Made by a program: the position numbers and the translations under genes. From Escherichia coli (GTDB lineage: Bacteria; Pseudomonadota; Gammaproteobacteria; Enterobacterales; Enterobacteriaceae), in NCBI RefSeq assembly GCF_001677475.2, contig NZ_CP015229.1: a stretch of DNA of 64,000 bases. One strand, 5' to 3'. The notes below the pieces were generated by a model that saw nothing but the letters and a program-made list of their open reading frames with translations, had not been told where the DNA came from and did not search any database. Positions 2,333 through 30,976 of this stretch are shown here, piece by piece (within the stretch, counting starts at the first letter, position 1; every line of letters begins with the position of its first letter).

Positions 2333-2965
2333 TTATTTCACCAGTTCGGGCCATAAACGCAAAGTCGTTCCGGCAATCTGCATCAGTTTTTCCAGCGATG
2401 CACCTTCGCGTGCGCTGATCGACATCCCCTGAATAATACAATTAAGGAATTCTGCCAGATGTGTCACGTCACAGTGGGTCGGGATTTCCCCGCGCGCTTG
2501 TCGTTGACATAAAAACTGCTGCAAAGTGCGCTCTTGCATCGCATGGCGTGATTTCAACGTATTGGCGATATCTCCTGAATCCGGGGAGAGGGTGGTGCAG
2601 TTGTTGATCATGAAGCAGCCTGCCGGGGTGTCTTTGCTGGTAAAGCAGTTGGCGATGGCAGCAAAATAGTCAGCCAGCGCAGACTCCACGCTTTTCTCTT
2701 CACAAAACAGCTGTGCTTCATGCTTAGCGGCAAAACGATCGATATAGCGGTCGAGTACGGCGCGGAATAACCCCTCTTTGTTGGTAAATTCCGCGTATAG
2801 CGTGGGCGCTTTGGCTCCGGTCGCTTCGACGAGGTCCGCAAGAGAAGTCGCTTCATAACCATGCTGCCAGAACAATTTCATGGCCTTATCAAGCGCGGCA
2901 TCCCTGTCGAACACTTTTGGGCGGCCACGGCTTTTTTTTACACATTGTGTTGAGTCAGTTGCCAT
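2333..2965 (-). CDS. comR: TetR-family transcriptional repressor ComR (YcfQ)
   Basis: ORF 2333..3043; N-terminal TetR HTH (GRPKVFDRDAALDKAMKLFWQHGYEATSLADL). Start at MATDSTQ is inferred. Confidence 0.8.
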   Translation of the reverse strand: MATDSTQCVKKSRGRPKVFDRDAALDKAMKLFWQHGYEATSLADLVEATGAKAPTLYAEFTNKEGLFRAVLDRYIDRFAAKHEAQLFCEEKSVESALADYFAAIANCFTSKDTPAGCFMINNCTTLSPDSGDIANTLKSRHAMQERTLQQFLCQRQARGEIPTHCDVTHLAEFLNCIIQGMSISAREGASLEKLMQIAGTTLRLWPELVK

Positions 2966-8224: not shown

Positions 8225-9298
8225 TTAGCGGGAGTAACTGACGGCAGCGGGCAGTGAAGGCGGGGAGAACAACAGATCGCTGAATGCACGCTGTGAAAGT
8301 TTTCTTACCAGCAAGCCCGCAACAGTACAGATGAACAAACTGACAAAGGGATAAACCAGCAGGAGTGTCAGTTCGACTTGCGGCGACCAGCGTGCTGCGT
8401 TCATTTGCGCAAGCAGAGTTAAGCTGAATATTTCAACCAGAATGCGATGGGAGGTGTAGATAGCAATGGTGTTGGAGCCAATCACATTCAGCAGGCTGGT
8501 GGAGCGCATACCGAATCGTTGCTCGTATTGATAAAACAGCTTCATGATCACCACAATCGATACCAGCGACAACAGCAGCGAGATAGTAAACAACCAGGCA
8601 CCGACCGCCAGAACGGTCAGCAAAGAAGCCATCAGTAGATGGCGGCGCAACGGCACCTCTTTAACACAGGTCATTAATGTTGCGCCAAACCATGCACCAA
8701 GGCTGTAATAAGGCAAATTGCGGATCACACTGTTCATTCCCCACCACGGCGTGGGAACGAAATTAACCGCCACACTCATCAGTACAAACAAGGCGAATAG
8801 TGGCAGCGCCAGACGGCTAAAAATTTTACATACCACGAAATAGACAATTAACGCATACAGATACCACAAGCTGGTGCTGGCGGTGATCATCCCGTGCAGG
8901 AACTCACCGGTGGAATCGGCATAAGCGGCATTGGAGGCATTGCTTAAATCGCGCTCAGGTGCCAGCCACTGGTTCAGCACACTTAACGCCAGCCACTGCA
9001 CCACGCCCCAAAGCGCCAGCACCCAGAAGATGTTCCAGACCCGTTTATCAAGACAATTTCCCCACGGTACGCTGTCGATATAGCGGCGAATCAAATAGCC
9101 GGATATAAAGAAAAAAACCGGCATACGAAAGGGTGCAAGGTAAAGGTTGAAATAGATCCAGCATTTGCTCAGGACTTCCGATAACGGATGCTGAAAAGTG
9201 GTCATATGCGGATAAAAGGTAATGACCGAGTGATAAATCACCACCAGGCAAATACATAACCCTTTGATCTGGTTAATCCATAGCTCTTTTTGTTTCAT
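8225..9298 (-). CDS. ycfT: Inner-membrane acyltransferase-family protein YcfT
   Basis: 357-aa polytopic membrane ORF at the expected position between mfd and lolC. Confidence 0.75.
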   Translation of the reverse strand: MKQKELWINQIKGLCICLVVIYHSVITFYPHMTTFQHPLSEVLSKCWIYFNLYLAPFRMPVFFFISGYLIRRYIDSVPWGNCLDKRVWNIFWVLALWGVVQWLALSVLNQWLAPERDLSNASNAAYADSTGEFLHGMITASTSLWYLYALIVYFVVCKIFSRLALPLFALFVLMSVAVNFVPTPWWGMNSVIRNLPYYSLGAWFGATLMTCVKEVPLRRHLLMASLLTVLAVGAWLFTISLLLSLVSIVVIMKLFYQYEQRFGMRSTSLLNVIGSNTIAIYTSHRILVEIFSLTLLAQMNAARWSPQVELTLLLVYPFVSLFICTVAGLLVRKLSQRAFSDLLFSPPSLPAAVSYSR

Positions 9299-22279: not shown

Positions 22280-22450
22280 TATCGCGTCCTCAACAATGAA
22301 TTTTGTGATGCGGTGCCTGGTGCCTCCAGGTGACGTTAACCAGTTAACAATTAACGCAGGATACAGAGAATCCACCCATAACACTGTTTTTGGTTTTTAC
22401 TGTTCCGCGTGCGCTGAGCCGCATTCACCGCATCACAAAATTCACTTTTA

Positions 22451-22508
22451 AAAAAGGGCGGCAGAGCAGTCACGGAGTAAAACTGATACCGCCAAATGTC
22501 ACCAGAAT
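22451..22508 (-). ncRNA. dicF: DicF-like small regulatory RNA
   Basis: Minus-strand sequence ATTCTGGTGACATTTGGCGGTATCAGTTTTACTCCGTGACTGCTCTGCCGCCC + T-run matches recalled E. coli DicF except 2-3 nt; lies ~170 nt upstream of dicB as in Qin. Confidence 0.7.
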
Positions 22509-22856
22509 ATTGATAACAGAGGGCGTTGTAGCGGGGTTGTCACTTAAGCGTATGGTCAACCTGACAACCCGGTGTCCTCAACGGGGAAAGGCGTCCCTCC
22601 CACCCCCGCCATACTTACCGCCGCGCCATTTCGCGGGTCGCCACAACCGGAAGCGCACGGTCGAATTAAATTTAACGACACCGTGCAGTGAGACGAACTT
22701 CGCCGTGCGCTTTCGTGTTGTGTGCCTGCTTTTAACCACGTCAGGCGAGGTGGTTTCCGTCATTCCCCAACGACAGGAAATCTGTATAATCTGGGTATCC
22801 CCAACGATCCAAGGAAATCATATGACAGAGCAAAGAGCACAAGCAGGTGATGGTGT

Positions 22857-23303
22857 ATGGACCGGGATGATATTCTTGACAGAATTTTTTATGGCTATTT
22901 TCTTGAGCAACTGTTTTCTGTAGCGACTGGTCGTCTCGATAAACTTCTCTCAGTAGTGAGTATTATCCTCGGTTCATCTGTCATTGGCGGATTCATTCCG
23001 GAAATTTCTGGCGTTTTTATTGTTGTGATCGCAACCGTCCAAACGATTTATGGATTCGGACAAAAGTCAGGTAATACCATGAGAAAATCCGCAGAATATT
23101 TGCAGCTTTTTGATGATGCAGAAAAATATTCTGATTCGGAATTGAAAATTCAGTTAAAAACTCTGGAAAAAACAGATGATCATATTTGGTCATCACTTAA
23201 AGATATTGCGATCTTAAAAACACAGATCAAAATAGGCGTCTCCATCGAACAACAAGAGAAGTTGCCCACAAAATCCAAATTGATGCGATTTCTTTGTGGT
23301 TAG
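22857..23303 (+). CDS. Hypothetical membrane protein, transcribed opposite to the early-left operon
   Basis: 148-aa ORF with one strongly hydrophobic segment; AT-rich relative to flanks; TATAAT at ~22784 and RBS-like AGGTGA upstream. Function unknown. Confidence 0.45.
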   Translation: MDRDDILDRIFYGYFLEQLFSVATGRLDKLLSVVSIILGSSVIGGFIPEISGVFIVVIATVQTIYGFGQKSGNTMRKSAEYLQLFDDAEKYSDSELKIQLKTLEKTDDHIWSSLKDIAILKTQIKIGVSIEQQEKLPTKSKLMRFLCG

Positions 23304-23392: not shown

Positions 23393-23608
23393 TCAGTAGT
23401 TTTCAATCACTCGCGAAACGTTTAATGCCGCGCTTTTTGCCAGAGTGGTAATATCCTGCTCCGCTGACACCAGTTCTTTAGAGAGGCGCTCTTTGTAGTC
23501 AGCGGCCTGCTTCAGGTCATTAATGGCGCGTATCTTTCCGCACATCCATTCGTAAATTTCATCCTCGGTATAGTCTGGTGCGATGATGACGGGTTCTCGT
23601 TTCTGCAT
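23393..23608 (-). CDS. Hypothetical protein (71 aa), early-left operon
   Basis: ORF only. Confidence 0.35.
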   Translation of the reverse strand: MQKREPVIIAPDYTEDEIYEWMCGKIRAINDLKQAADYKERLSKELVSAEQDITTLAKSAALNVSRVIENY

Positions 23609-24039: not shown

Positions 24040-24200
24040 CCACTACCGGGTAACTCTAGGTATTGCCCTGTATTGTGTGGGACGGGATGGGTTGGTATGG
24101 GAAAACTATAGGAAATGCCTAATTGCTTGTCAATAGGCTATGCCTAATGATTTGGGTGCGACCTAATAGGTGATGGTTTGTGGGAGAGGTAGTAGGAGTT
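24040..24200. promoter_or_regulatory. Putative OL/PL-type operator-promoter region
   Basis: Seen in sequence: repeated TGCCTAAT / TAGGCTATGCCTAA motifs between the repressor 3' end and the leftward operon. Confidence 0.4.
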
Positions 24201-30575: not shown

Positions 30576-30763
30576 AATTCATTCCGTATGGGAATTCCCA
30601 TATCGGGCAAAAACGGTTTGCTGTAAAGCGAGAGTTAAGTAGAATTGCTGCGGGTGCTTGAGGCTATCTGCCTCGGGCATGCCGCCGTAAGGCAGACAGA
30701 GAAAAGCCCCAGTTAACATTACGCGTCCTGCAAGACGCTTAACATTAATCTGAGGCCATATCT

Positions 30764-30976
30764 ATGACTTGCACACGTAGGTTAGCCTCTTACGTGCCGA
30801 AAGGCAAGGAGAAGCAGGCTATGAAGCAGCAAAAGGCGATGTTAATCGCCCTGATCGTCATCTGTTTAACCGTTATAGTGACGGCACTGGTAACGAGGAA
30901 AGACCTCTGCGAGGTACGAATCCGAACCGGCCAGACGGAGGTCGCTGTCTTCACAGCTTACGAACCTGAGGAGTAA
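30764..30976 (+). CDS. mok: Mok-like in-frame N-terminal extension reading frame of the hok toxin gene
   Basis: 70-aa ORF MTCTRRLASYVPKGKEKQAMKQQK... containing the hok frame, as recalled for chromosomal mokC/hokC. Confidence 0.5.
   Translation: MTCTRRLASYVPKGKEKQAMKQQKAMLIALIVICLTVIVTALVTRKDLCEVRIRTGQTEVAVFTAYEPEE
30821..30976 (+). CDS. hok: Hok/Gef-family type I toxin
   Basis: MKQQKAMLIALIVICLTVIVTALVTRKDLCEVRIRTGQTEVAVFTAYEPEE, near-identical in pattern to recalled Gef/HokC. Confidence 0.8.
   Translation: MKQQKAMLIALIVICLTVIVTALVTRKDLCEVRIRTGQTEVAVFTAYEPEE

Follow-up and report, generated by a model that had tools for sequence, protein, structure and literature searches.

A conserved four-way-junction RNA precedes DicF in the probable processing leader of a Qin-type Escherichia coli prophage

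DicF is among the oldest known bacterial small RNAs (sRNAs) and affects cell division, metabolism and the virulence of enterohaemorrhagic Escherichia coli (EHEC). Here we describe the stretch directly upstream of a dicF gene in a prophage of E. coli, positions 22510-22820 of a 64,000-nt piece of contig NZ_CP015229.1 (the window), which an earlier note had described as GC-rich, hairpin-dense and non-coding. The stretch contains a structured RNA, element E, for which comparison across homologues supports a four-way junction with a junction-loop pseudoknot. The stretch is probably the untranslated processing leader of DicF in the early-left (dicB) operon, with a proposed cut in an upstream hairpin (U), the E fold and a proposed RNase E cut at the DicF 5′ end.

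The genetic setting was read from the RefSeq annotation of an E. coli chromosome carrying a 99.8% identical copy, in which no annotation covers the stretch itself. On the minus strand, the operon runs from a helix-turn-helix repressor gene through ydfA, ydfB and a 71-aa ydfC-family gene (23393-23608; hypothetical protein, phrog_1744), past a 148-aa gene on the opposite strand, to the stretch, dicB, a DUF1482 (YdfD family) gene and a 3′-5′ exonuclease gene. DicF was recognised by Rfam RF00039 with 77 bits against a gathering score of 48 (22456-22507, minus strand), which bears out that the stretch lies upstream of DicF on the same transcript, and alignment to the K-12 dicF annotation places the DicF 5′ nucleotide at 22508. 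The layout ydfABC-dicF-dicB-ydfD, with the stretch directly 5′ of DicF on the same strand, is the same in K-12, and the operon is the dicB (early-left) operon of a Qin/DicA-type lambdoid prophage. A dicBp-like promoter sits between the repressor gene and ydfA, as dicBp does in K-12, and is the probable origin of the leader-carrying transcript (Table 1).

Table 1. Coordinates of the leader, its RNA elements and adjoining features in the window
Feature	Position	Strand	Basis or remark
dicBp-like early-left promoter, TTGACA-17-TATAGT	24105-24133	-	promoter scan, 11/12 matches
148-aa hypothetical protein, hydrophobic N-terminal half	22857-23303	+	open reading frame list; RefSeq hypothetical (identical sequence)
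Upstream region of inserted gene	22756-22856	+	read from sequence
Conserved linker GGCACACAAC... and hairpin AACCAC-N-GUGGUU	22723-22755	-	inverted repeat; upstream edge of conserved leader module
Hairpin U	22642-22722	-	inverted repeats and folds of uncleaved precursor (here and K-12)
Element E, four-way junction with junction-loop pseudoknot	22525-22647	-	covariance model R1
E, helix P1	22639-22647 with 22525-22533	-	
E, helix P2, loop AAAUGG	22632-22636 with 22621-22625	-	
E, pseudoknot GUAUGG/CCAUAC	22609-22614 with 22550-22555	-	
E, helix P3, variable loop (here 9-nt insert)	22604-22608 with 22582-22586	-	
E, junction J3/4	22571-22581	-	
E, helix P4, 19-nt conserved loop	22562-22570 with 22534-22542	-	
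Small hairpin UGUUAUCA-AUAUUC-UGGUGACA	22497-22518	-	predicted in every fold including it
DicF small RNA, seed and intrinsic terminator	22456-22508	-	Rfam RF00039, 22456-22507
Module D	22295-22446	-	fold z-score -5.79, 0/200 shuffles as good

In K-12, ydfC and dicF are separated by 340 nt, and the stretch aligns to that untranslated interval of Qin and not to small genes. Over the ∼190 nt that precede the DicF terminator, from GUCGUUAAAUUU to DicF, this copy, K-12 Qin, mEp460 and 640R1 are almost identical, and the covariance model R1 described below scores 163 bits in this prophage and 171.5 bits in K-12. The nearest known object is the K-12 ydfC-dicF leader with its 190-nt DicF; as judged by alignment, the present stretch is its orthologous copy, occupying the same operon position and aligning over the whole conserved part. 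Conserved sequence at both positions inferred for RNase III and for RNase E cleavage, together with the alignment to the untranslated Qin interval, supports the proposal of an RNA processing or regulatory leader. The two copies differ in a 9-nt insert in the P3 loop here, which gives a predicted long species of ∼198 nt, in the first DicF nucleotide (A here, U in K-12), and in the opposite-strand gene inserted here between ydfC and the leader. As far as they were accessible, the K-12 papers (Faubladier et al. 1990, as cited; Ragunathan et al. 2023) cover the RNA species and the nucleases; how the 5′ domain folds is not described there.

The unusually high GC content noted earlier was borne out, with values of 0.543-0.550 in 300-nt segments across 22400-22849 compared with 0.36-0.50 in flanking segments. 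Two inverted repeats had been proposed and both exist, but ∼12-15 nt away from where they had been placed: the perfect 9-bp repeat GGGTTGTCA/TGACAACCC has its arms at 22534-22542 and 22562-22570, not at 22522-22558, and the second, GCACGGTCG.../...CGACACCGTGC, has arms at 22655-22670 and 22671-22686 that are 75% complementary. Longer repeats are nested around the latter (22648-22660 with 22703-22715, 92%; 22642-22652 with 22712-22722). Single-sequence folding energy lies modestly below that of shuffles (z -2.0 to -2.3), and folding energy by itself is not enough to argue for function; it is the comparison across sequences that marks the hairpins as more than chance. The core is one compact multi-helix fold and not a string of independent hairpins. 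BLAST against phage records divides the stretch in two, 22517-22647 and 22716-22807, and the stretch is a mosaic whose upper ∼65 nt (22756-22820) belong to the opposite-strand inserted gene. Neither this nor the compact fold of the core had been recognised in the earlier note.

Four helices and a junction-loop pairing were first suggested by visual reading of the alignment. To define element E, viral contigs were scanned for CAGGTTGACCATRCGC, which gave 65 distinct variants, and a two-block pattern scan of species-representative genomes gave further copies. The model R1 was built, and 82 matches, 73 of them distinct, were then realigned (alignment A4). R1 matches 22514-22665, the sole copy within the window. 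Across the 73 variants, standard pairs occupy 93.9% of cells, compared with 31-50% when the 3′ partners are slid by 1-3 columns; compensatory changes on both sides were found at 14 of the 34 pairs, and none of 500 shuffles reached any of five pairing measures. An untouched MAFFT alignment concurs (92.8% paired, 9 compensatory pairs). Helix P3 covaries at four of five pairs and tolerates changes of loop length, including the insert found here, while P4 covaries at six of nine. In Izhakiella, P4 is formed by GGGUAACCA/UGGUUACCC in place of GGGUUGUCA/UGACAACCC, with three consecutive pairs changed on both sides, and the inner pairs of P1 alternate between C:G, U:A and U:G. Single-sequence minimum free energy (MFE) folding also yields P1-P4.

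The pseudoknot is absent from R1 and so provides an independent check: 99.8% of its cells pair. Its sequence is GCAUGG/CCAUGC in phage P1, and a G.U pair occurs in two sequences. RNAalifold, which is unable to draw both, picks GUAUGG/CCAUAC over P4. The data, the change in phage P7 among them, are compatible both with an extension of the pseudoknot (GGU with GCY) and with a GGU/ACC helix closing P3. The long unpaired runs of E are invariant in 65-73 variants, and across phage types conservation is higher in E than in the sRNA downstream of it. A search of Rfam 15, as the earlier note had proposed, returned no match at an E-value ≤10 between 22508 and 22830; ARAGORN found no tRNA or tmRNA at element E. 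Although the K-12 work already gives the explanation of the locus as such, full-text literature searches and Rfam did not yield the four-way-junction/pseudoknot fold, its coupling to exchangeable sRNAs in different phage groups or the placement of both RNase III cuts on conserved flanking helices.

Among viral contigs, E lies upstream of 124 of 125 DicF copies, and the exception is a truncation that keeps P4 only. Of 5426 complete E. coli genomes, 4312 carry it, at 8945 places with up to 8 copies each, and it is unannotated in every RefSeq record among the matches listed. In phage records, BLAST finds the segment 22517-22647 again in Ayreon, cdtI, Stx2c phages, 2H10, Salmonella phage F1055, an Actinobacillus phage record and phages P1 and P7, where it lies between the C1-controlled Pban and tRNA genes in the same transcriptional sense; copies also occur in P1-like plasmids. 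Representative genomes with E include Escherichia, Citrobacter, Serratia symbiotica, Trabulsiella and Izhakiella, and all are Enterobacterales bar misbinned contigs of metagenome-assembled genomes. The terminator-bearing sRNAs preceded by E are not confined to DicF, as seen in phages P1 and P7 and in Ayreon-type, Salmonella, Serratia and Izhakiella elements. Comparison of the copies thus establishes a near-obligate linkage of E to DicF-type sRNAs, alongside the homology to Qin and the E fold.

Individual copies have further features. In the record of Actinobacillus phage vB_Apl-pPE4 (2467-2800), E lacks the 5′ strand of P1 and is followed by a tandem-duplicated sRNA-plus-terminator module; this record shares 83% identity with E. 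coli prophage sequence and has DicA and YdaT genes, odd for an Actinobacillus phage. In Salmonella phage F1055 (L011, ∼2380-2480) and in L121, the insert in the position of U has the tRNA T-arm-like sequences CUGGUUCGAUUCCAG and GCGGGUUCAAUUCCUGC, a hint that this leader also includes a module derived from, or resembling, a tRNA. Another long inverted repeat, ACACAACAGAAAAGAGCAUC ... GGUGCUCUUUUCUGUUGUGU, lies just past the sRNA terminator in L011, L121, L033/L138, L137, L134 and Ayreon (L005) and flanks another structured domain, which gives the leader the look of successive cassettes with closing helices of the CACAAC/GUUGUG type. In contig IMGVR_UViG_2913107626_000001 (L019; 6366-6513, minus strand), E scores 132 bits with mismatches in the pseudoknot and J3/4, the downstream terminator has decayed and an open reading frame (ORF) with a good Shine-Dalgarno sequence comes next; it is either a decaying copy or a case of E used as a 5′ untranslated region.

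Upstream of E, and sharing bases with it, is hairpin U. Its inner helix pairs CGAAAGCGCACGG (22703-22715) with CCGUGCGCUUCCG (22648-22660) and its outer helix pairs CACAAC with GUUGUG (22712-22722 with 22642-22652), giving 10 + 6 bp with an internal loop; a small hairpin rich in A and U (22655-22686) is enclosed. Pairing of the outer 6 bp competes with that of P1 in E. U is kept in lambdoid types and, read by eye, shows compensatory change between them (AAGCGCAC/GUGCGCUU versus GAG(G/A)GCAU/GUGCUCUC). A simple scan for the upstream partner of U had a high background (shuffled mean 8.1/10) and was not used as evidence. The linker upstream of U is also conserved: CCACCU(C/A)GCCUGA(C/U)GUGGUUAAAAG...GGCACACAAC recurs in the Serratia symbiotica copy L137 and upstream of ydfC in phage 640R1.

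In K-12, DicF occurs as 190-nt and 53-nt species that both accumulate in stationary phase; the former is lost in a delta-rnc mutant and builds up in an rne-ts mutant, while the latter requires RNase E (bioRxiv 10.1101/2023.04.14.536235). Primer extension identified the 5′ end of the 190-nt RNA as an RNase III cut, with no internal promoter found, and these results confirm Faubladier et al. 1990 (as stated in bioRxiv 10.1101/2023.04.14.536235). The dependence of the DicF 5′ end on RNase E in K-12 has also been reported separately (PMC5069750). The difference between the two lengths, 190 - 53 = 137 nt upstream of K-12 DicF, corresponds to position ∼2246 of the K-12 record L004, within CCGUGCG|CUUCC. 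This point is 5-6 nt ahead of P1, on the 3′ strand of the helix of U, and since the 190-nt end maps there, E forms the 5′ domain of the long DicF already known. By analogy with K-12, to which knowledge of the cleavage is confined, U is probably an RNase III substrate, and its double-stranded substrate is conserved here. The long DicF species of this prophage, the counterpart of the 190-nt RNA with DicF as its 3′ part, is predicted from the alignment to run from ∼22653 to 22456 (∼198 nt).

Folding of the minus-strand RNA, which the earlier note had proposed, gave different structures before and after the putative cut. In the MFE fold of the uncleaved precursor, here and in K-12, GUUGUG pairs with the upstream CAYAAC to make the full U helix and P1 is absent. 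The cleaved RNA is predicted to have a 6-nt 5′ tail, compact E with P1-P4, a 6-nt linker, a small hairpin at the RNase E site and, last, the terminator of DicF. In the loop of the small hairpin lies the DicF 5′ end, CAAU|AUUCUGG, and the site UCAAU|AUUCUGG is one base off that of K-12. The alignment to K-12 would put RNase E cleavage in this prophage at 22508, and until then the leader strand of the hairpin is predicted to mask DicF nucleotides 5-12.

These folds, together with the K-12 nuclease data, lead us to propose the following maturation route. A polycistronic transcript from the dicBp-like promoter would cover ydfA, ydfB and the ydfC-like gene, pass antisense through the inserted gene and enter the leader. 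RNase III would then cut U, giving the ∼198-nt RNA of which the 5′ two-thirds are E. The cut would free GUUGUG, allowing P1 of E to close and the long species to refold. Closed E may serve as an RNase-resistant scaffold in which the new 5′-monophosphate end is brought beside the RNase E site, setting the DicF 5′ end. RNase E would cut the loop of the small hairpin, 16 nt downstream of E, to yield the ∼53-nt DicF, and the hairpin would cover the first DicF seed nucleotides until that cut. The refolding, the juxtaposition of ends and the masking are inferred from these folding models.

Some observations weigh against the stretch being a DicF processing leader of this kind. That DicF exists in 190-nt and 53-nt forms, and that these depend on the two nucleases, are K-12 results carried over by analogy, and the RNase III cut was placed from RNA length and a position number of unverified origin, good to a few nucleotides only. 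A simple guide or spacer would not need the 20-nt invariant single-stranded runs GGCGCGGCGGUAAGUAUGGC and CAGGUUGACCAUACGC, which point to a specific partner. In phages P1 and P7, the annotated Pban -10 is ∼30-40 nt upstream of E and there is no U hairpin, so licensing by RNase III is not general, and the spacing between E and terminator in Ayreon-type copies is ∼13 nt, with almost no seed. As to the fold itself, the sequences are mostly close relatives, A4 was fitted to the nested helices of the model, and the pseudoknot's compensatory changes derive from a single lineage. The minus strand is mildly preferred by wobble counts (96.6% versus 93.5%; 115 G.U versus 43 A.C cells, one non-pair column removed), which are weakly informative on strand; the minus-strand assignment therefore draws mainly on DicF, the terminators and the direction of the operon.

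Is the stretch coding after all? Open frames of 177 aa on the plus strand (22390-22923) and 61 aa on the minus strand (22578-22763) contradict the letter of the earlier statement that it holds no convincing ORF, although in substance the statement stands, as the 61-aa frame is not kept. A small protein, be it the arginine-rich product of the 61-aa ORF or a decayed ydfA/B/C-type sequence, might be read from the match of that ORF to phrog_8854 (E-value 1.3e-22) and from the 'hypothetical protein' annotated over homologous DNA in several phage records. Over 90 variants, however, the frame stays open for anything between 10-19 and 91 aa, with a stop at most 15 codons upstream of the anchor in 28 of them, and the C-termini vary with P3-loop indels of 1 nt or other non-triplet length. 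A TAG stands just upstream in K-12, and Ayreon- and Salmonella-type copies have UGG-UAA within P1. Neither the 61-aa ORF nor the 177-aa frame matched Pfam, RefSeq annotates no gene over E in the E. coli records among the matches listed, and the variation tracks base-pairing and not codons. We therefore consider a protein-coding function extremely improbable, and phrog_8854, which overlaps U and the 5′ half of E, probably stems from erroneous gene calls on a conserved RNA. The suggested remnant of ydfA/B/C-like genes is likewise unsupported: ydfA, ydfB and the ydfC-family gene are intact upstream, and alignment finds the non-coding Qin interval, not frameshifted coding sequence of known small genes.

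Two further explanations accept the RNA but give it another role. E could act on transcription, promoting read-through of the sRNA terminator or escape from Rho as a put-like RNA or through a boxA/Nus-type 5′ flank. E always stands just upstream of an intrinsic terminator beyond which genes need expression (dicB and the exonuclease here; the tRNAs and ban in phage P1), no N-like gene is apparent in the early-left operon, the untranslated stretch here exceeds 1 kb, and in some variants (AUGCUCUUUCCGUUGUGG in L033/L138) the flank RUGCKCUYY-GUUGUGG is similar to rrn boxA/boxC. This role is nonetheless improbable. R1 finds no match in HK022, whose putL and putR share just a short GCGCGGCGG-like run and consist of two stem-loops with no pseudoknot; the flank here, UGCGCUUCC, has two mismatches to the boxA core and is the paired 3′ strand of U; the rightward operon has no second copy of E; Ayreon seems, by eye, to carry a separate put-like sequence beside PL; and termination at DicF does occur in K-12 (PMC5069750, PMC9438474). 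Somewhat better placed, though still unlikely, is the view that E is itself the functional RNA and long DicF the product: a structured RNA of a class not yet described, having a partner of its own (a protein, RNA polymerase, a small ligand or an RNA) bound through the invariant loops, and a portable 5′ chassis for exchangeable seed-plus-terminator modules in temperate phages of Enterobacterales. The stronger conservation of E than of the sRNA after it and its invariant unpaired runs would fit, as would the accumulation of the 190-nt species, stable in stationary phase in K-12 (bioRxiv 10.1101/2023.04.14.536235), the position of E and a terminator just downstream of Pban in phages P1 and P7, the near absence of a seed in Ayreon-type copies, and L019, where E is largely kept despite the decayed terminator and the ORF that follows. 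Yet RNase E turns the long form into the short one, which suffices for the known DicF phenotypes, no neighbouring protein gene is conserved among the differing P1, Qin-type and Ayreon-type contexts, E has no known partner, and neither a riboswitch nor a protein-binding family of Rfam matches it at an E-value ≤10.

The 190-nt form of DicF has until now been treated as a processing intermediate. If the stretch is the DicF processing leader that we propose, the 137-nt 5′ part of this form is a covariation-supported, pseudoknotted four-way junction found in about four-fifths of complete E. coli genomes, which is shared with phages P1 and P7 and with phages carrying other sRNA 3′ modules and is more conserved than the sRNA seed. 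It offers a concrete, mutable structure for asking how prophage sRNAs mature, whether RNase III licenses RNase E, and whether the long form has a function of its own. It also makes a case for an Rfam-type model, which would end mis-annotation as hypothetical proteins such as phrog_8854.

Several known systems resemble parts of this leader. The 'dicF-like region' of phage P1 (AF234173, 68472-68573) and its P7 equivalent contain P2, P3, P4 and the strands of the pseudoknot, with a terminator hairpin after them, score 86-90 bits with R1, and are a partial E. Beside their promoter-proximal position and lack of U, they differ in having no clear P1 and a 3′ sRNA part unrelated to DicF, and tRNA genes follow in place of dicB. 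The RNase III/RNase E cassettes of operon-embedded sRNAs, and the stems of rRNA and phage early transcripts, likewise have long closing helices, here U upstream and D downstream, and an AU-rich RNase E site sets the sRNA 5′ end (PMC9438474). The HK022 put RNAs are similar in being structured RNAs of a lambdoid early operon upstream of terminators, but they are two adjacent stem-loops of ∼70 nt that bind the β′ zinc-binding domain, whereas E has four helices and a pseudoknot. We know of no other cassette with a conserved pseudoknotted four-way junction between an RNase III stem and an sRNA.

Other identities for E were considered and set aside. A put-like antiterminator was rejected for the different architecture, the missing R1 match in HK022 and the single copy in the window, and boxA/nut for a flank (GCGCUUC versus the core GCUCUUU) that is paired in U, the lack of an N-like ORF and a perfect core in only a few variants. 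The cloverleaf-like topology recalls a tRNA-like element or RNase P substrate, but the helix lengths are unfit and ARAGORN and the Rfam tRNA model were negative. A known ribozyme or riboswitch was rejected given no Rfam match at an E-value ≤10, no hammerhead or twister core by eye and no conservation of the J3/4 sequence. Paralogy with STnc100 was considered because weak R1 hits in P1-like loci overlap sub-threshold STnc100, but full STnc100 folds differently. In Ayreon (L005, ∼2830-2890, minus strand), ACGGCGUAUGGCACAUGCGUCGUUAGCGG lies just downstream of the annotated PL and resembles stem I of HK022 putL by eye, possibly a put-type antiterminator in an E-carrying phage. The STnc100-like elements are found in the ban operon of P1-like loci (L113 7400-7552, minus strand; L142 4260-4412, plus strand; L009 2790-2909, plus strand) at 33-42 bits, and they share the flank AUGCUCUUUCCGUUGCGGUG...CACCGCAAC with the surroundings of E.

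Directly after the DicF terminator comes module D, in which a 21-bp near-perfect helix (22426-22446 with 22295-22315) surrounds a ∼110-nt branched domain. It has a weak Rfam match to STnc100 (27 bits, under the gathering score) and ends at the dicB ribosome-binding site, just before the start codon (22279). A 72-nt DicF species has been reported (PMC5069750, PMC9438474), and from its predicted fold module D is probably the RNase III site that would yield this species; it may also control dicB translation.

At the other end of the stretch, the 148-aa ORF looks like an inserted accessory gene that lies outside the leader and has its own candidate promoter. The candidate is an extended -10, TGTATAAT (22783-22790), which has no -35 hexamer and is not listed by the consensus promoter scan; a Shine-Dalgarno sequence, AGGTG (22845-22849), precedes the ATG at 22857. 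On the minus strand this upstream region is an antisense spacer in the dicB operon transcript and, because the gene is on the opposite strand inside the operon, transcription from dicBp must run antisense through it. Matches to the segment 22716-22807 occur in SfIV, Kati and Klebsiella phages; that in SfIV is located just upstream of SfIV_36, an ORF of similar length, the two genes being likened by length and position only. The 148-aa protein belongs to phrog_6315 (unknown function; E-value 6.8e-24), has no Pfam match, and gave only faint PADLOC hits (RTasSLATT, E-value 0.013; Csx1, E-value ∼0.01).

Rfam also located other RNAs on the plus strand of the window: a full, terminator-ended STnc100 in the late-gene region (35877-36052, 93.7 bits), a sok antitoxin RNA (30652-30826, 110.6 bits) and two tRNA genes (34822-34894 and 34999-35072).

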